A stretch of DNA of 64,000 nt from positions 49,520-113,519 of IMG/VR virus record IMGVR_UViG_3300025066_000012, one strand, 5' to 3'. Of the stretch, positions 194 to 59,722 are shown piece after piece. The stretch's first letter is position 1, and each line of letters opens with the position of its first letter. Source of the DNA: a virus. Taxonomy: Duplodnaviria; Caudoviricetes. The position numbers and the translations under genes are program-made. The notes under the pieces were generated by a model that saw only the letters and a list, made by a program, of their open reading frames with translations, had not been told where the DNA came from and did no database searches.

Positions 194-1285
194 TCAAAAC
201 AAAATCCTCTCCCAGAGTGGGCGTATCTTCCTTTTAACACCCAAGTTATCTAGCTCTGTATCAATGTCAATAATATTTGGGGCCCTAAATAATTTAGGCT
301 CTGATAATGTTCCGTCCAAATATAGCCCAGTTCCAATATCAGATATCTTTTCTGCTCCACCGGTGTCCAATATAATCCTGCTATCTACTGCAGATGCAAC
401 TTTTAGAGCAATTCTTGCTGGAAAGTTTGCCTTCATTAAGCCGGATATAACGGTTGCTGACGGCCTCTGGGTCGCCAGAATTATAGATATACCTGCGGCA
501 CGGCCCTTCTGAGCCAACAAACATAGCTTCTTTTGTATCAACTTATCTTGCAAGGTTAGATCTGCCCACTCATCAATAACTAAGACAATTGGCTCCATAA
601 ATGTTTTTCGCTTTGCTTTCGCGTTATATTCCTTTGCACTTCTTGTTTTTGATCGCTGCAAGAAAACAAAACGCTCTTCCATTATTTTGGTGATATCTTC
701 TATTATATCTGTAGCCTCTTCTGCTGAATGCACAATTCTCCTTACAGAGGAGACTCCCTTGTAGCAAGAGAACTCGACCATCTTTGGATCTATAAGGTAG
801 ATGATTGAGTCGCCACCAATTAGTGACAATATAAAGTTATGCAATAGCACGCTCTTCCCTGAGCCAGTAGTTCCCCCTATTAGAATGTTTGGCATCTTAT
901 TAAGATCTAAACTTATAGTGTTTCCGTGTGCGTCAACGCCGAGGGCCACAGGAACATAGTGCTCCCTATTTAAGGTCTGATACGTTTCTGCAAAGGATGG
1001 CGATGGAATCTGCCGAGTCTGTATATGAAGTCTATACACTCCGCTGTTCATTGCCGTAAAGCCAGTCGGATAAGAGTAAGCTCTGAGGGCAGTGCCCAAG
1101 TCCCTTAGAGAGCGATCTATCTTTAGAGAGCTCTCTCCCTGCTTTAATGATATATCATATATATCGATATATTCTTTTTCCTCTAAAAAAACGGAGTCAA
1201 CCTTTATTTTAAACGCAGTAAGCAGGCTCTTTAAATTATCTTCTTTTGTTTTCTCGAAAATTTGGACCCGGTTCTCTTCCGACAT
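194..1285 (-). CDS. FtsK/SpoIIIE-family DNA translocase (motor domain only)
   Basis: Walker A GGTTGSGKS, LIDPKMVEF, Walker B LVIDEWADL, LAQKGRAAGI, LATQRPS, ILDTGGAEK. Confidence 0.92.
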   Translation of the reverse strand: MSEENRVQIFEKTKEDNLKSLLTAFKIKVDSVFLEEKEYIDIYDISLKQGESSLKIDRSLRDLGTALRAYSYPTGFTAMNSGVYRLHIQTRQIPSPSFAETYQTLNREHYVPVALGVDAHGNTISLDLNKMPNILIGGTTGSGKSVLLHNFILSLIGGDSIIYLIDPKMVEFSCYKGVSSVRRIVHSAEEATDIIEDITKIMEERFVFLQRSKTRSAKEYNAKAKRKTFMEPIVLVIDEWADLTLQDKLIQKKLCLLAQKGRAAGISIILATQRPSATVISGLMKANFPARIALKVASAVDSRIILDTGGAEKISDIGTGLYLDGTLSEPKLFRAPNIIDIDTELDNLGVKRKIRPLWERILF

Positions 1286-9294: not shown

Positions 9295-9967
9295 TTATTC
9301 CAACCTTCCCTTTAAAAGATCACTAAATTTAGTAACCTTGCCAGTCCTGTGATCTGTAACTTTATCTCTTTGAATCTGATAAGTTTTAATCTTATCTCCC
9401 CTCATTCCCGAGCCAACCTGAGAGGATCTAATCCTTGAGCGTTTTTTCCCAAGCGTATCAGATTCTATCTCATAAAGCTTTGCCCGAAGTAATCTTAAGG
9501 CGTTCTCTTTATTCAGGCGTTGAGAGCGCTCCTGCTCACATCGCACAGATATCTGAGTTGGGATATGCTTTAGCTGAACAGCAGAGTCAGTTGTATTCCT
9601 GTGCTGACCTCCCGCTCCAGAGCCACGACAGGTTTTCCATTCAAGATCTTTTTCTAAAATCTTTATGTCAGCCTGCTTAGGCTCCTCTAAAACTGCAACA
9701 GTTATTGTTGAAGTATGAATTCGCCCTCTTTTGTCAGTAGGGGATGCTCTCTGAAAACGATGACCCCCCGCTTCTCTGCCAAACATCTTTAAAGCATTCT
9801 TCCCTTTTACTAGGGCGATTATAATCCCTGGACGAGAATCTATTAGGCTTAAGCTAAAGAGAGTTCCGGCGACAGACCTTGGCGTAAATTCCAAATTGAT
9901 CTTTAACAAGAAGTTTGCTGTCCCTGCCGCCTTCGGCGGCTCTAATCTCTAATATAATAGAATTCAT
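9295..9967 (-). CDS. class I peptide chain release factor, 223 aa, expressed via +1 frameshift at CTT-TAG-C (9859-9853)
   Basis: SD AAGGAG + ATG 9967; frame 0 gives ILEIRAAEGG.DS.LL (PCRF start) and stops at codon 38; +1 frame gives EAGGHRFQR, SPT, GRIHTS, GSGAGGQH, R..KIKTY. Confidence 0.88.
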
Positions 9968-12442: not shown

Positions 12443-13462
12443 TTATTTGCTCAAAATATGTGTAGAACTCTCGAACTGTCCAGCGTTAGTTTGTCTTACA
12501 AAGATGGCCTTTTCTTGCAATTCTCGAACAGTCCTCGCTCCAGAATAAGAAAGTCCAGAGCGAATACCTCTTTCCAAATCGGCTAACACGTCTGCCACAG
12601 GCCCCTTGTATTGTACGGTCGTTGCTATGCCCTCTGCCGAGGCTTGCCGCCCGCGCCAATCCATCTGAGCATCTTTAGAGGCCATTCCTCGATAAGACTT
12701 AACTCTGCCCTCATTCGTTATAAGTATTTCGCCAGGAGTTTCGTCCGTTCCAGAGAGCAGTGAGCCAATCATTACAAAGCTTGCTCCTGCGGCAAGAGCC
12801 TTAACTATGTCTCCAGAGTTGCGAATACCACCATCTGCGATGATTGGCGCACAATAACTTGACTGAGAACAATCGATAATAGATTGTAACGCAGGCACTC
12901 CGTGTCCCGTCTGAATTCTTGTGCTACAGATGCTGCCTGAACCTATTCCCGTCCTTATGCTATCTGCTCCCCAATCAACCAAAGATTCATATCCATCTTT
13001 CGTTGCGACATTTCCGGCCATTATATGAATCAAACTTCCAAATTCTTTTTTCAAATTTCTTAAAGCAGTCTTCATCAGAATGTGATCGCCATGTGCCGTG
13101 TCAACGCAGATGGTTCTAACGCCAGCATCTACGAGTGTGCGCGCACGCTGAAGCTCATCTGTTGACGTTCCTATTGCGGCAGCTATATGCGTTACGGCTC
13201 CTGAGCTAATGGCCTTTTTTGCAATCAAAGCCTGCCGCTCAGGCGTGTTGTACCTGTGAACAATTGAAAGACCGCCAGCCTTGCCCATTGCTATAGACAT
13301 TTTTTCTTCTGTGATCGTATCCATTGGGCTTGATATAATCGGCAGCCTAAATTCAACATCGCCAAGCAAAGTGGTCGTGCTAACTTCTTTCCTGCTGCGT
13401 ATATCTGAATATTGAGGCGCAATTAAAACGTCTCCATAGCTTAATGCTTCTTTAAATTTCAT
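12443..13462 (-). CDS. guaB: IMP dehydrogenase / GMP reductase family, no CBS domains
   Basis: SSPMDT, VDTAHG, AGNVAT, catalytic [26 protein letters not shown]. Confidence 0.9.
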
Positions 13463-23715: not shown

Positions 23716-24462
23716 TTAAAAACTCGTAGCATGACTCATTCTTTCTTCCACAATTTTCGATACCCATCTTGACTTTAGATTTCTGTTAGCCAGGATAAGG
23801 GGCAGTGATGCAGTAGAAACCTTTGAAACCATTATTGCAAATGGCCTTTTGGCAATCTCTTTTGTTATCGCAACCTCTAAGCCCTTGTATCCAAACGGTG
23901 CCGCCATTGCCCCCATCACCCTAATGTCTGCCATTTTATCTGTTAACATTTCATCTAAACACTCGACTGCGCCGAGTCTTCCGAATACTATTTTGCGTAT
24001 CTTCATATCACCATCATTCTTTAGAGTCCGCAAAGTATCTATAGAACAATGTTGTGCCGCAAACATTCTCTCATCAGTAATCTTTGACTTTGCAAATTTA
24101 TTTACAAATGATATATCTGAATAAAACCCATTATCCAAACAGTATTTTCTGGCAGAAGGAAGCTTTGATTTCTTGATGATCTGATCACCCAACTGTGGAA
24201 ACCTGCTAATGGAAGCTCTAATAAATCGATTTACAAAAGTCCGTAAATAATAACCCTGATTATAGCTAGCATAGCCATAGCTCACATTAGAATCGGAATT
24301 TTTAATAACCTCAAATCCAGCATCTGTTAGGAGCAGCGCTTTGGCTTGGCCGAGAGTGATATTATCACAAACCTTATCACTTTTGTCTCGAAAGGCGGAC
24401 CAATCATCAGCCTCTAAAACAGCGTCAATGTTACTAAAAAATTTAAGATTCTTACTCGCCAT
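23716..24462 (-). CDS. alpha-helical repeat-like protein, paralog family
   Basis: L..D....IR units; shared C-terminus. Confidence 0.65.
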   Translation of the reverse strand: MASKNLKFFSNIDAVLEADDWSAFRDKSDKVCDNITLGQAKALLLTDAGFEVIKNSDSNVSYGYASYNQGYYLRTFVNRFIRASISRFPQLGDQIIKKSKLPSARKYCLDNGFYSDISFVNKFAKSKITDERMFAAQHCSIDTLRTLKNDGDMKIRKIVFGRLGAVECLDEMLTDKMADIRVMGAMAAPFGYKGLEVAITKEIAKRPFAIMVSKVSTASLPLILANRNLKSRWVSKIVEERMSHATSF

Positions 24463-25291
24463 CTTTGTTTCCCATTCTTAAGCTATCAATACTTTCAGTT
24501 GTAAATCCTGCTGCGTTTCTATGTCCACCGCCGCCGAATTCAAGAGCTACCTCTGACACATCTATTCCATTTTCTTTTGACCTTAAAGAGAACCTGTATC
24601 TATATCCATCGAAAAAATAAACCGCAGCGTAATCTGCGCCTTCACTTAAAATATTCCCTATCTCTGATTGAAAGCAGGAAGAGTTTACGGCAATTACTTC
24701 GTCGCCAAGGATGTTTACCTTATGAGCATTCGAAACTACTGTTTTTATAATAGAGTTCTTATACTTTAAGATATCCCTTCCGGACTCCACCATTTGATAC
24801 CAGCCACTAGAGTATATCATTCCAATCTTGTTATTTAGATTGTCCCAATTTGCAAAGGATCTATCATAGGAATCAACAACACTTAAGATTTCTTTTGAAT
24901 TTGGAATAGCCCAAGTCCACAAATCTCTGTCTTGAACGTGCTGAATCAGTGCTGGAACCGGAATATCCTTGAATAGATATTTCCACGCCAATACTGCTCC
25001 CGACTGATGCATATCAAAGTGGCAGTATTTTAAATCTGCACAAGCTTTCTCTGCCGTCTTATGGTGGTCTAAGACCACAATGCTGGCGGCATCCCTTGCT
25101 ATCTCCCTCATTATAGGCTCAGGGTAACAAAAGTCCACAATAAATACACTGCGGCCTTTGACGTTCGGAGGCTTGCAGTTGTGAAAGACCGGAACATATG
25201 TTGCTCCGCTCCCATATTTTTGATAGAATGACCATGCAGCACCAAATCCGTCTGGACAGCCCGCATGATACAGAATCATTATTTTTGCCAA
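24452..25291 (-). CDS. DHH/DHHA1 phosphoesterase
   Basis: YH..C.DG, VDF, LDHH, DRDLW, SLRS, GGGGH..AAG. Confidence 0.92.
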   Translation of the reverse strand: MAKIMILYHAGCPDGFGAAWSFYQKYGSGATYVPVFHNCKPPNVKGRSVFIVDFCYPEPIMREIARDAASIVVLDHHKTAEKACADLKYCHFDMHQSGAVLAWKYLFKDIPVPALIQHVQDRDLWTWAIPNSKEILSVVDSYDRSFANWDNLNNKIGMIYSSGWYQMVESGRDILKYKNSIIKTVVSNAHKVNILGDEVIAVNSSCFQSEIGNILSEGADYAAVYFFDGYRYRFSLRSKENGIDVSEVALEFGGGGHRNAAGFTTESIDSLRMGNKDGE

Positions 25292-26311
25292 TTAAACCTC
25301 CTTCGGAGAGTGTGAATACTTAATGCTTTTCACAAGAGGACACTCGTTTGTAATAATGAGTGTTATCGCCTTAGACATAGCATCAAAGGTTTTAAAGGTT
25401 CTAAGAGAATTCTCACTGAACATCTTAAACTTTTTAAGCTTTTTTAAAATATCACACTTGCTTATCACAAGATTCGTTGTTCCAGTAAGATTGATCGACG
25501 CTATTAACATATCCAAGTTTAGCCAATTAACTTTTCTCGGCCTACCAGTCGTTACGCCAAACTCTTCTCCCAAAGAAGCAATCTTTGAAAGCTCAGGATC
25601 TTCAAGTAAGCTAGAAGGAAATCTTGGATCTTCGCCAGACCTAGTATCATAAATCTTCGCAGCACCCCAAATGTTTTCAATCTTCTGCGGAGGAAATCCC
25701 ACAGAACATGCGGCATATGGAAGTGTGGTAGACGAAGTTACATACGGATAAAGTCCGTAATCAATATCAAGCCAAACTCCCTGAGCCCCCTCACATAATA
25801 CATTTCCACTTAATTTTTCATCCCAAATAATATCTGGAGACAAAACATCTTTAGCTAAGATTCCGGTTCTAGCAGATTTATCAGCATAGCAAGGAGCAAT
25901 ACCTTTGCTTGTTGTTCCTAGCTTTGCAGCTAGATGCCTCTTATCATAAGCGATATGCTTATCAGTTACAATGTGGCATCTTGGAGAAACCTTGACCAAG
26001 CTTGTGTCGAATCCATTATCTTCTAAATAGGATAATTCCTTCATAAAAGACTTCGGATGAAGAACACACCCAGGACCAACAACAGAGGCTATTCCATAGA
26101 ATACGCCGGATGGAACAAGGTGAGTGCTATACTTTTTATCATCAACCCAAACTGTGTGTCCTGCGTTGTTTCCTCCCGCCCACCTTACAACGAAATTATA
26201 CTTACCACTACTCGCCAAGTAGGCTGTAATCTTTCCTTTTGCTTCATCACTGGGGTTTTAACCCCAGGCTAAACCAATTACAATATCTGCAAAATTGACT
26301 AACCTGGACAT
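25292..26311 (-). CDS. purA: adenylosuccinate synthetase (short form) interrupted by a 12-nt stop-containing insert
   Basis: SD GGAGG + ATG 26311; GLAWG*NPS-DEAKGK, GGNNAGHT, HLVPSG, GTT.KGI.P.Y.DK, EGAQG..LDID.G.YPYVTSS, E.GVTTGRPR. Confidence 0.9.
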
Positions 26312-26405
26312 AAAAGCACCTCCTTTTCTTTCTTCTGCCTTGGGGTGTTAAGGTTTTTTCTACTAATTTCAAGGCAAATAGTAGAGGCCACTATTACATA
26401 CCAGA

Positions 26406-32522: not shown

Positions 32523-34121
32523 TCAATCAGCTGGCGGGCTATAGATCGTAACTTCCGTTGTCAGCAGGATTCCGCCAGAAGATGCAGCGTTTTCTAAGGC
32601 AACTCTAACCACTTTTACTGGATCTATAATTCCTGCGCTTATCATATCTTCCTGTAAGTCTCCAACTAGCGCATCAAATCCCATCAAAACGTTGCCTGAG
32701 CTTATAATCTTTTCCATATGCAAGTGATATTCTATACCTGCGTTTTTTAGAATCTGCACAAATGGGGCCCTCATAGCTGAGGCAATCACATCACATCCAA
32801 CTATTTCTTCTGTAGTTAAATTTGAATTCTCTTTAAATTCCCTTAAGGCCGGCAAGCAATGTAACAATGCTGCGCCACCACCGGGAACTATACCTTCTTC
32901 GATAGCAGCTTTAACCGCATTGATAGCATCTTCAACTCTATCTTTTCTTTCTCTTACTTCCGCTTCCGAAACCCCTCCAACTTTCAATACTGCTATAGAG
33001 CCGGTTATTGCTGATAGCCTCTGCCTAAGCGCAGCAATTTCATAACCCTCTAGGTTTGGCTCTTCCATCCTCATTTGCATAGACTTAATCCTCCCTGCAA
33101 CATCATCAGGCGTTCCGGCTGCGTCTATGATAGTAGTATCATCTCTTGTGACAGAAACCCTCCTAGCCGTCCCCAGGTCGTCTAACGTAGCTTTATCAAG
33201 CGGGGAGCCTACCTCGTCTGTAAACAAAGTTGAATTACATACTGTCGCAATATCACCAAGTATATCACGCCTTATCTCACCAAACCCAGGAGCCCTAACC
33301 GCACAGGAAGATAGTGTTCCGCGAGCCCTGTTTAGAACCAGCGTCTGCAATGCCTCACCCTCGGTTGTCTGTGAGATAATCAATAGCGGCTTACCAGTTT
33401 CTGCAACCGCAGTAAGAATAGGCATCAATTCATAAGTTGATTTAATTCTTCCGTCATAAGTTAATATAAACGGATCTTTAAATTCAACAGTCATTCTGTC
33501 TGTATTCGTTGAGAAGATTGGATTTATATACCCCCTATCAAATGATAGGCCCTCAGAATAAATAACCTTTGTCTCTGTTCCCGCTGATTCCTCTACTGAA
33601 ATTAAGCCATGATCTCCAACAGAAGAGACTGCTCCGCCTATGATTCTTCCCAACTTTTCATCATTGTTCGCAGATATGATCGCAACACTATTTATTAAAT
33701 CTTCACTAGAAACACTTTGCGCAAGATCCTTAAGCTTTGCTGAGACAACCTCAACAGCTTTATCAATCCCTCGTTTAATTAAAACCGGATTGTGTCCAGC
33801 TGCGACCATCTTTGAGCCTTCGGTATAGATAGCTTGGGCCAAAACTGTTGCAGTTGTAGTTCCGTCACCAGCCAGAGAGTTAGTAGAGCTAGCTACGCTC
33901 TTTATTAGTTCTGCGCCCATATTCTGGATTCTATCTTTTAGAACGATAGCTCTAGCCACAGTTACTCCATCCTTAGTAATGAGCGGTGGACCAAAGTCTC
34001 TATCTATTGCTGCGTGTCGGCCCCTTGGACCTAGAGTTGCCTTAACTGCGTTTGCAAGGATATCAAGACCTTCTTGCAGGCCGAGTCTTGCCTCGGCATT
34101 AAACTTAACTTCTTTAGACAT
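32523..34121 (-). CDS. groL: chaperonin GroEL
   Basis: TLGPRGR, ITKDGVTVA, AGDGTTTATVLA, FDRGY, APGFG, EEGIVPGGG, GIIDP.KV; no GGM tail. Confidence 0.97.
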   Translation of the reverse strand: MSKEVKFNAEARLGLQEGLDILANAVKATLGPRGRHAAIDRDFGPPLITKDGVTVARAIVLKDRIQNMGAELIKSVASSTNSLAGDGTTTATVLAQAIYTEGSKMVAAGHNPVLIKRGIDKAVEVVSAKLKDLAQSVSSEDLINSVAIISANNDEKLGRIIGGAVSSVGDHGLISVEESAGTETKVIYSEGLSFDRGYINPIFSTNTDRMTVEFKDPFILTYDGRIKSTYELMPILTAVAETGKPLLIISQTTEGEALQTLVLNRARGTLSSCAVRAPGFGEIRRDILGDIATVCNSTLFTDEVGSPLDKATLDDLGTARRVSVTRDDTTIIDAAGTPDDVAGRIKSMQMRMEEPNLEGYEIAALRQRLSAITGSIAVLKVGGVSEAEVRERKDRVEDAINAVKAAIEEGIVPGGGAALLHCLPALREFKENSNLTTEEIVGCDVIASAMRAPFVQILKNAGIEYHLHMEKIISSGNVLMGFDALVGDLQEDMISAGIIDPVKVVRVALENAASSGGILLTTEVTIYSPPAD

Positions 34122-36611: not shown

Positions 36612-37691
36612 TTATCCCTCCAGTGGACAAACCAGAGAAACAAGTGTCGCAGCAACTCTGTACGGGTCTGCATTTGAGTTTGGTCGCCTATCCTCAAAGT
36701 ATCCGGCCCCATCATGCTTCACATGATGGGGGATTCGGACAGATGCCCCACGGTCTGCTACTCCATACTTATATTCGTCTACAGAACAAGTCTCATGCTT
36801 TCCGGTGAGCCTTCTCTCTAGTCCCTCTCCATAAGATTCTTTCGCCATAGCAAGAGCCTCTTCGGAACCCAAAGCCTCACAAGCCTTATTGATAACAGAA
36901 ATACCACCAGCCTCCCGCATGGTCTTTGTGCTAAAGTTAGAATGCATACCACTTCCGTTCCAGTCGCCCTCTAAAGGCTTCGGGTCAAAAGTAATCCCAA
37001 CCTCTTGTAGCTCACAAATTCTTTGCAGAATGAATCGAGAAACCCATAGATGGTCGCAGGCTTGAAGCGTGTTAATTCCCGGCCCACCGACCTGATACTC
37101 CCACTGCCCCAATGCAACCTCTGCATTAACTCCAACAATAGAGAGCCCAGAACTAATACAAGCATTCAGATGTAACTCTGCAAGATTTCTTCCGACCACA
37201 TTATCTGTGCCAACTGAGCAGTAATACTGTCCCTGCCCTTTTAAATCCTCTTTGTGCCCAAAGATTCCGCCGTCTTTGGTCATAAAGTATTCTTGCTCAA
37301 AGCCAATAACAGGCTCTGTCGCATGATGCTTTATCATTTCATCAACAAGCTTTGCTCGATGATTTGTTTCGTGCGGAATCATATCTAGGCCCAATACATC
37401 ACATAAAACCAGCACACCATTTTCTCTGTTTGAATCTACACATGCAAACACTGGTCGAAGCACTAAGTCTGACACCTCTGTCGTTGCCTGACTAGTGCTA
37501 GACCCATCAAAGTTCCATAGAGGAATATCCTTTAGTGATAGATTCCAATTTTCATCGGAAGAAGAGATAGTTAAAATCCTAGTCTTTGACCGTAGCTTCT
37601 GAGTCTTGCCGCCGTCTAGCCACAGATATTCACACTTCAATGTTGTCTGCTTCAATGGAGGGGCTGTCGGCTCTGCTGTTGATTGTGTCAT
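36612..37691 (-). CDS. glnII: glutamine synthetase type II
   Basis: EYLWLDG, LRSKTR, WNFDGSST.QA, GFEQEY, NAEVA.GQWEYQ, GDWNGSGMH.NFST, RLTGKHET, RGASVRIP, GYFEDRRP.SN.DPY. Confidence 0.95.
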   Translation of the reverse strand: MTQSTAEPTAPPLKQTTLKCEYLWLDGGKTQKLRSKTRILTISSSDENWNLSLKDIPLWNFDGSSTSQATTEVSDLVLRPVFACVDSNRENGVLVLCDVLGLDMIPHETNHRAKLVDEMIKHHATEPVIGFEQEYFMTKDGGIFGHKEDLKGQGQYYCSVGTDNVVGRNLAELHLNACISSGLSIVGVNAEVALGQWEYQVGGPGINTLQACDHLWVSRFILQRICELQEVGITFDPKPLEGDWNGSGMHSNFSTKTMREAGGISVINKACEALGSEEALAMAKESYGEGLERRLTGKHETCSVDEYKYGVADRGASVRIPHHVKHDGAGYFEDRRPNSNADPYRVAATLVSLVCPLEG

Positions 37692-49478: not shown

Positions 49479-50027
49479 TTAAGGGTTTCTTCTGCTCCGA
49501 ACAACCTTGGCGAAACTCCAGTCGAAAGCCTCTTCCCCATCATATACAGATCTTAATGTTGGATGCCAGCCGGAACTATATACCATAGCATCAATGTGAT
49601 CTGCTCCATTTAAAAATAATTGAAAAATTCGATGGTTACCATCATCCACAATCAATTGATTTTTATCTGTATTGTAATAAAGAACCGGAAGTCCCTCTGT
49701 ATGGCTCAGCTCACCTCGATATATATCTGCAAGAATATGATCTCCCTGACTTTGCAACATCGTCAGAGATTCAACAGGAATGTTCTTGATAAGAATTGCA
49801 TCTTCTAAGTCATGTCCAGTCCCTTCATATATTTCCTCTGGAAGATTCAGATTCCCGCCCGCCTCGGGCAATAACTTCACAGCCCGATCTGCTTCGTCTG
49901 TGAGCCCTTCTGCCTCTTCTCTCCGCTCCTCCACGGAAGCTTGCTTTAAGAGGCTTACAACGCGCGTGGCGGCTGTGGAGTGCCCCTCTCGATCTAACCA
50001 GCCCACTAGTGTTTCAGCCTTGATCAT
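49479..50027 (-). CDS. leader-bearing ParB/Srx-like protein
   Basis: P.L......LIVDDGNHR. Confidence 0.65.
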   Translation of the reverse strand: MIKAETLVGWLDREGHSTAATRVVSLLKQASVEERREEAEGLTDEADRAVKLLPEAGGNLNLPEEIYEGTGHDLEDAILIKNIPVESLTMLQSQGDHILADIYRGELSHTEGLPVLYYNTDKNQLIVDDGNHRIFQLFLNGADHIDAMVYSSGWHPTLRSVYDGEEAFDWSFAKVVRSRRNP

Positions 50028-59643: not shown

Positions 59644-59722
59644 TGGTCCGAGGGGTGGGATTTGAACCCACGTATCTTTCGCTTATAAGACGAATGCTTT
59701 TCCCAGACTTGGCCACCCTCGG
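59644..59722 (-). tRNA. tRNA-Ile(UAU)
   Basis: CCGAGGG/CCCTCGG-A-CCA acceptor, TTCGT-CT TAT AA-GCGAA, GTGGG TTCAAAT CCCAC; weak D stem. Confidence 0.8.

Follow-up and report, generated by a model that had tools for sequence, protein, structure and literature searches.

How can a complete enzyme be made from a gene that carries a stop codon in the middle of its P-loop? The question is raised by a purA-like gene in a 64,000-nucleotide (nt) stretch of viral DNA (positions 49,520–113,519 of IMG/VR record IMGVR_UViG_3300025066_000012; Duplodnaviria, Caudoviricetes), hereafter the window, from an uncultured, large, marine phage. Read directly, the minus-strand gene consists of a Shine–Dalgarno (SD) sequence, a 17-codon segment opened by ATG, a short gap that begins with a UAA stop, and a 318-codon PurA frame. 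An earlier note on this DNA had pointed to a stop-containing hairpin in the PurA P-loop at positions 26243–26270 as a possible bypass element; the sequence is as described, and these coordinates bracket the feature correctly. Programmed translational bypassing probably carries ribosomes across the 12-nt coding gap between the two segments. This reading, which rests on sequence comparison, is supported by the recurrence of the interruption at one codon, by gap lengths in all frames and by purifying selection on both flanks.

The first coding segment encodes MSRLVNFADIVIGLAWG and ends with GCC UGG GGU, of which GGU would serve as the take-off codon (Table 1). The gap, UAAAACCCCAGU, begins with the stop and ends with the putative landing triplet AGU, a 2/3 match to GGU as the earlier note had read it. 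Excision of the gap yields GLAWGDEAKGK, the motif of approximately 100 uninterrupted relatives, in line with the earlier claim that removal of exactly 12 nt restores the P-loop; intact relatives read ...VVGLAWGDEAKGK... across this region. The second segment opens with GAU GAA GCA AAA GGA AAG at position 26248 and continues for 312 more sense codons, with no second lesion in its 318 codons, as had also been claimed. The joined product is predicted to yield the tryptic junction peptide LVNFADIVIGLAWGDEAK. Re-initiation after the stop would produce a dead enzyme because, downstream of the gap, no canonical in-frame start is encountered until after the P-loop.

The gap and the codons that precede it form the perfect 7-base-pair (bp) hairpin CUGGGGU-UAAA-ACCCCAG, with the stop within the loop, as previously described. 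The 5′ arm is composed of the last base of the Ala codon and the Trp and Gly codons, and the 3′ arm is its reverse complement. The 18-nt palindrome, CTGGGGTTAAAACCCCAG, occurs in a single copy in the window, and none of 100 shuffles matches at three or fewer mismatches. The RNA hairpin folds at −12.1 kcal/mol, and 3 of 200 shuffles fold equally well.

The protein is a classical PurA. Pfam PF00709 positions 1–159 align across the break with one TAA inside, and the same family matches the downstream open reading frame (ORF) at 2.5e-75. PurZ, of the 2-aminoadenine pathway, was rejected as an identification because NCBIfam (purA, 6e-73 vs PurZ, 2e-19) and PDB searches, whose top matches are classical PurA structures, place the protein elsewhere. 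The window PurA belongs to a short form of ∼335 residues, like its ∼3000 metagenomic relatives.

Interruptions at the same codon were sought in relatives using the DNA of the closest protein clusters and pattern scans of IMG/VR and JGI metagenomes. The N-terminus is truncated or out of frame in 13 of the 120 closest protein clusters. At least 12 distinct gap variants, including that of the window, were recovered, all placed after TGG GGT, and the interrupted relatives are diverged (65–75% identical). Equivalent stop-hairpins, which the earlier note had suggested looking for at this codon in related phage purA genes, are present in many forms. The short class contains gaps of 11 nt (UAACCCCAGGA; L241), 12 nt (the window gap, and UAAACCCCAGGC in L024), 13 nt (UAACUACCCCGGC in L029 and L032, and UAACUACCCCGGA in L106) and 14 nt (UAAAUACCCCAGGU; L019). 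The long class contains gaps of 29 nt (L026) and 30 nt (L022), both with AGC at the end, and of 32 nt, with GGU (L013 and L060) or GGC (L018) at the end. A 7-nt remnant, UAAAUGU, is found without a hairpin in L242.

The gap lengths (7, 11, 12, 13, 14, 29, 30 and 32 nt) cover all three values modulo 3, a spread that no shared mechanism of readthrough or of a single frameshift can explain. An altered genetic code was also ruled out, as TAA and TGA both occur as the gap stop. The codon before the gap is GGU in all 12 variants listed, and a stop (TAA or TGA) follows directly in all 12. The same Gly codon is GGT in 30, GGA in 18, GGC in 16 and GGG in 5 of 69 intact loci. The landing triplet of the variants listed is GGU or GGC in six cases, GGA in two, AGC in two, AGU in the window and UGU in one. 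The AGC triplet is found in two independent long-class variants (L022/L023/L031 and L026/L107), each in two to three samples and each a clonal population. The window allele looks like the 14-nt form, as in L019, minus one loop base and one G. The 7-nt gap of L242 equals the L019 gap without its 7-nt 3′ arm; it lies at L242 146–233 on a single 60.9-kb contig with 320 open downstream codons, and represents either a decaying cassette or a hairpin-less hop from GGU to UGU.

Beyond these relatives, a pattern scan of 185,579 prokaryote genomes returned six matches, all false, and no purA-like sequence among IMG/VR gaps of 37–67 nt passed the motif filter. Cultured phages gave no blastn match and at most 37% identity by tblastn. 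The matches listed from the metagenome pattern scan are mostly ordinary purA starts or unrelated DNA, and a 10-nt TAAYTGGGGN class and 28–37-nt classes ending in TGGGGN were rejected as normal genes.

Base pairing was read from per-sequence folds, as two MAFFT alignments (A1 and A2) misplace loops. Hairpins are found in all short-class relatives (−11.5 to −17.3 kcal/mol), and the long-class hairpins are more stable (−22 to −28 kcal/mol; z, −4.0 to −6.4). No such hairpin is present at the site in the two intact relatives that were folded (L162 and L165). In the short class, the 5′ arm consists of the Trp and Gly codons themselves. Pairing is kept where sequences vary: opposite G, the Ala codon has C or U in third position, and the U of UGG faces A or G. 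Because the 3′ arm reverse-complements the codons for Ala-Trp-Gly, its last triplet is GGC or GGU, a Gly codon that abuts the resume codon, and the short-class cassette, as read from its sequence, carries a built-in candidate landing codon. The long class opens with UGACC-UUCG-GGUCA. L060 opens instead with UAACCC-UUCG-GGGUUA, in which UAA for UGA and UUA for UCA form a double compensatory change, and both L026 and L060 have an extra C-G pair flanking the UUCG loop. In the outermost helix of L013, two Val codons (GUC GUC) pair with the landing and resume codons (GGU GAC).

Both flanks of the gap are under purifying selection. Across the 318 downstream codons, the interrupted lineages differ at a proportion of synonymous sites (pS) of 0.63–0.82, which is saturated, and the nonsynonymous-to-synonymous rate ratio (dN/dS), where computable, is 0.07–0.15. 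The upstream piece spans 14–17 codons across interrupted variants. Its pS is 0.59 between the window and L019 (last 12 codons before the stop), 0.78 between L013 and L018 and 0.81 between L029 and L019, with a proportion of nonsynonymous differences (pN) of 0.04 in each comparison. These codons encode the first strand and half of the P-loop and therefore matter only if joined to the rest. DEAKGK directly follows the gap in every variant listed. Conservation of the gaps themselves greatly exceeds that of synonymous sites: the 13-nt gap is identical in L029 and L032 despite a pS of 0.66, and the 32-nt gaps of L013 and L018 have 2 differences at a pS of 0.69.

The insert of the window is fixed and is not an assembly artefact. 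The 308-residue truncated protein call that derives from the window allele is encoded on at least 12 ENA and Logan contigs and one JGI metagenome contig, and further cluster members are found on JGI and NCBI contigs, all with the identical insert. The insert is hence not unique to one assembly, an outcome that the earlier note had listed among those that would refute bypassing, but occurs on at least 13 contigs from independent samples. The contigs are 99.4–100% identical to the window and represent one population sampled repeatedly. Members of the 90% protein cluster are 308-residue calls or a fragment, none of full length. A search of 5.8 billion clusters gave 72% identity for the closest full-length protein.

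A tree of 185 relatives intersperses interrupted with intact genes and places the window allele as sister to genes of the long class. Well-supported branches of an IQ-TREE analysis (55 rows) require at least seven changes of state, and the approximately unbiased (AU) test rejects a single interrupted clade (log-likelihood difference, 438; p-AU, 3e-53). Precise loss on repeated occasions (GGT...GGT repeats flank the palindrome), recombinational transfer of the 5′ end and multiple gains would each fit this scatter. The gene order (198-residue ORF, purA, DHH gene and 248-residue ORF) is the same in intact and interrupted loci and leaves no room for an extra gene; neither a nuclease gene nor any other extra gene was found beside purA in the interrupted loci examined. 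In interrupted loci, a discrete spacer with a strong SD sequence tends to precede purA (26–312 nt in seven of eight). In ten intact loci, by contrast, purA begins next to the end of the preceding gene or within it (−14 to +31 nt). One possibility is that the gap and the 5′ end are transferred together; another is that strong initiation makes up for the cost of hopping. The leader of short-class genes is three residues longer and begins MS[KR]L.

The interruption shows two properties by which bypassing is recognized. A noncoding block interrupts an ORF whose flanks are both selected as parts of one protein, and a slow-to-decode codon occupies the A site at take-off (UAA in the window; TAA or TGA in all 12 variants listed). 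In the proposed mechanism, the ribosome would translate MSRLVNFADIVIGLAWG until GGU, paired with peptidyl-tRNA-Gly, occupied the P site and UAA the A site; the tRNA would then release GGU rather than allow termination. ACCCCAG would pair with the just-read CUGGGGU on the exit side of the ribosome and pull the mRNA forward by the length of the loop and arm. The anticodon would then re-pair at the 3′ foot of the hairpin, on AGU in the window and on GGU or GGC in most relatives, and decoding would restart at GAU to give a single polypeptide with a normal GLAWGDEAKGK P-loop. We infer the hop itself, the zipper role of the hairpin and the adequate decoding of the AGU allele from these comparisons, which give strong support for the family and less firm support for the window allele.

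The bypass cassette of T4 gene 60 was reportedly described by Huang in 1988. It reads GAU GGA UAG CC UUCG GG CUA UC ... GGA UUA, and its core GGA-UAG-CC-UUCG-GG-CUA is closely matched by GGU-UGA-CC-UUCG-GG-UCA in the long purA class, with the stop paired with its complement in both. The long class further resembles gene 60 in its paired codons, the stop after take-off, the CC-UUCG-GG stem-loop and an A/U-rich gap. The UUCG tip is present in L013, L018, L022, L026 and L060 and absent from the window hairpin, whose loop is UAAA. UUCG hairpins are generic stable hairpins, and the likeness of the long class to gene 60 may be convergent. Every known gene 60 homologue belongs to a myovirus topoisomerase gene (large subunit) accompanied by MobA (Manning and Atkins, bioRxiv 10.1101/2022.08.31.505936), and the purA locus lacks this homing endonuclease or any other nuclease gene. 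Conserved in those homologues are paired take-off and landing codons, a stop after take-off, a stem-loop with the CC-UUCG-GG tip, a mini-SD (GAG, GGG, GGA or AGG) 5–7 nt before the landing site, an A/U-rich 3′ gap and a nascent-peptide signal (bioRxiv 10.1101/2022.08.31.505936). No mini-SD is found in the window gap UAAAACCCC or in long-class 3′ gaps such as AAUCUCAACAUAAAAA. The residues of the gene 60 nascent-peptide signal (Y16, Q19, V22, R24, T40 and others) are likewise absent from purA, which has an ordinary PurA N-terminus. The nascent chain at take-off has 46 residues in gene 60 and 14–17 in purA, and the gap is 50 nt compared with 11–32 nt. Unlike the gene 60 hairpin, that of the short class in the window cannot form in the A site alone, as its 5′ arm is the take-off codon and the codons before it. 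By analogy, the purA gap would work like gene 60, with no claim of membership or homology.

Other systems share further properties with the purA gaps. The byps of Magnusiomyces capitatus mitochondria are said to be 27–55 nt long and to number dozens per genome in many genes. Lang et al. (2014), as cited in PMC10732093, reportedly present them as untranslated insertions, short and numerous, that could form hairpins, have matching take-off and landing codons and seem to move within coding sequence, much like the purA gaps; the latter, however, occupy one site of one gene family in viruses of prokaryotes. In the terminase gene of the Streptomyces phage phiHau3, two 10-nt gaps follow a rare UUA codon, with mass-spectrometry support in Escherichia coli (Antonov et al. 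2023, PMC10732093). Like purA, this is a phage gene with a gap of ∼10 nt and local RNA structure that brings the landing codon near the take-off codon. It differs in having a hungry sense codon, UUA, rather than a stop in the A site, in gene and host phylum, and in a proposed regulatory role tied to the bldA tRNA, for which purA has no known counterpart. Pairing of mRNA on leaving the ribosome has been argued to drive forward bypassing (Wills et al., bioRxiv 10.1101/2024.12.09.627546); such exit-side pairing is the role proposed here by analogy for the purA hairpin, whose 5′ arm is made of codons that the ribosome has just translated. The literature searched yielded no account of bypassing in purA.

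Several observations weigh against bypassing at the window allele. At its first position, the landing AGU is mismatched to tRNA-Gly, and non-cognate landing sites in T4 gene 60 cause ribosomes to be redirected. The nascent chain has 17 residues at take-off and no mini-SD lies 5–7 nt before the landing triplet, so that two stimulators of gene 60 bypassing are absent. The short hairpin of the window is, by itself, only moderately unusual (z, −2.25). PurA may be dispensable for the phage, in which case a crippled allele could persist. Finally, the population that carries the allele is nearly clonal; as the contigs of each variant are identical or nearly so, selection within an allele, and hence since the loss of the G, is not measurable.

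An alternative explanation is that the family is decoded by bypassing but that the window allele was recently crippled, when loss of a G turned the landing GGU into AGU, with full-length PurA produced at low levels or not at all and the gene on course to decay. The earlier note had considered a recent gene-killing mutation; the idea is contradicted for the family and keeps some standing for the window allele, given its landing triplet. The derivation of the window gap from the L019 form by two 1-nt deletions, the decay of cassettes illustrated by L242 and the failure of non-cognate landing in gene 60 all suit it, as does a clonal population that offers no selection test. We nevertheless consider it unlikely, because the 318 codons carry no second lesion, the allele is widespread across samples and the two independent AGC variants suggest that AGY is tolerated, with a dN/dS of 0.07 between L018 (GGC landing) and L022 (AGC landing). 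Extending decay to the whole set, as selfish or accidental lesions in unexpressed genes, is scarcely credible. Although purA is auxiliary and absent from many phages, every downstream ORF is open despite saturated synonymous change, at a dN/dS of 0.07–0.15; the upstream codons are kept with synonymous-only change, and no second lesion is found in any of the 12 variants listed.

Gap lengths in all frames would suit excision from the RNA as well as hopping, whether by an unknown micro-intron, by splicing of the bulge-helix-bulge (BHB) or group I type or by cleavage and ligation. Removal at the RNA level is nonetheless very unlikely. The archaeal BHB micro-intron has two 3-nt bulges and a 4-bp helix, whereas the purA stems are continuous over 7–9 bp and have no bulges, their 5′ arm is coding (exon) sequence and the removed part is asymmetric about the helix. 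No group I or II intron reaches the Rfam gathering threshold in the window, where only a tRNA does, and the frame is not restored by any cut that would end the 5′ exon in U and the intron in G; nor would splicing need a stop after the Gly codon or a matched 3′ Gly triplet. A switch at the DNA level, in which replication slippage deletes the palindrome in part of the population and only those genomes express PurA, is highly improbable. Palindromes stimulate such deletions, and short direct repeats flank the gap (GT...GT in the window and GGT...GGT in relatives); the scattered interrupted state, with its at least seven changes and rejected monophyly, suits easy precise loss. However, no insert-less allele of the window lineage or the P0019 lineage was found among the assemblies searched, which leaves the reversible switch raised in the earlier note unsupported; deletion is irreversible, so that the insert would not be maintained, and the gap sequences are conserved over saturated synonymous divergence.

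Under bypassing, the preferred explanation, a more specific proposal can be put forward tentatively, although as a whole it is somewhat doubtful. A minimal cassette of 11–14 nt would suffice without a long nascent-peptide signal or an internal SD sequence. The inverted copy of the Ala-Trp-Gly codons would strip the P-site codon from the tRNA by strand displacement, zip the hairpin at the mRNA exit and deliver a Gly landing codon. The cassette would have been gained and lost among phage purA genes (at least seven changes and no nuclease gene), may share ancestry with the long form, and its output may be tuned by an RF1-like factor of the phage, described below.

A permissive genome-wide scan of the phage for stop-in-hairpin breaks gave 70 matches, which are noise, and a stricter scan for an SD sequence followed by a short ORF returned only purA and a release-factor gene. 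The latter encodes an RF1-like class-I factor without domain 1 and is split over two frames at ...UCU CUU UAG CUU..., a prfB-type +1 shift site (CUU-stop-C) but with UAG. ORF1 (37 residues) matches RF1 profile positions 105–137, and ORF2 contributes the GGQ-bearing RF-1 domain. A relative with 75% identity (L249/L250 420–1200) retains U CUU UAG C, on contigs that bear the 32-nt purA gap. The codon-recognition tripeptide is S-P-T in the window factor and S-P-L in the relative. 'CUU UAG' was not found in the literature searched. Take-off at the purA stop could face competition from the phage release factor. In the 5′ untranslated region (UTR) of purA, a segment, ACACCCCAAGG, is complementary to the take-off region CCUGGGGU ∼75 nt downstream and is a possible alternative pairing partner that would compete with the gap hairpin; CCCCAAGG is also found upstream in L029 and L032.

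A phage tRNA-Gly was considered as a possible hopping aid, and none is encoded, the only tRNA being Ile-UAU. Many purA relatives at ∼55% identity are labelled as giant-virus metagenome-assembled genomes in IMG/VR; the window genes have bacterial-type SD sites. Metabolic and chaperone genes lie on either side of purA; these and other genes of the window are listed with the purA features in Table 1.

Table 1. Features of the interrupted purA gene and other genes in the window (window coordinates)
Feature	Position	Strand	Remarks
purA spacer	26312–26405		Precedes purA
5′ UTR segment	26338–26348	minus	ACACCCCAAGG
SD sequence	26318–26325	minus	AAGGAGGT; 6 nt 5′ of ATG; direct reading
Start codon	26309–26311	minus	ATG; direct reading
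Coding segment 1	26261–26311	minus	ATG and 16 codons; MSRLVNFADIVIGLAWG; first strand and first half of P-loop
Ala codon	26267–26269	minus	GCC; direct reading
Trp codon	26264–26266	minus	UGG; direct reading
Proposed take-off codon	26261–26263	minus	GGU; Gly of W-G-D-E; direct reading of codon
Stop codon	26258–26260	minus	TAA directly 3′ of GGU; then AAC, CCC, AGU
Putative coding gap	26249–26260	minus	12 nt; UAAAACCCCAGU; between P-loop Gly and Asp codons
Hairpin and palindrome	26250–26267	minus	Perfect 7 bp; stop within loop
Proposed landing triplet	26249–26251	minus	AGU; equals GGU at positions 2 and 3 only
Coding segment 2	25292–26248	minus	Resume codon GAU; DEAKGK...; 318 sense codons and stop
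Stop of purA frame	25292–25294	minus	
DHH/DHHA1 phosphoesterase	24452–25291		Begins directly at purA stop
RF1-like release factor	9295–9967	minus	∼222 residues if joined
GMP reductase/IMPDH-family gene	12443–13462		6.6e-103
GroEL-type chaperonin	32523–34121		
Glutamine-synthetase-like gene	36612–37691		
FtsK/HerA-type ATPase	194–1285		Weak match to poxvirus A32 packaging ATPase
tRNA-Ile(UAU)	59644–59722		Sole tRNA

The interruption also matters to annotation: approximately one-ninth of the closest clusters hold protein calls with a spurious N-terminal truncation or a wrong start. To our knowledge, T4 gene 60 has been the sole well-studied natural model of efficient translational bypassing. A second gene family would, if true, give a ready-made comparative mutagenesis series, in which the natural, graded gaps are 11, 12, 13, 14, 29, 30 and 32 nt long, the hairpin has two architectures, the landing triplet is cognate in some variants and non-cognate in others, and the nascent chain has yet to leave the exit tunnel. 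Such a series would bear on the minimum signals for a hop, on mRNA pairing as its sole driver and on how strictly the landing codon must match over short distances.

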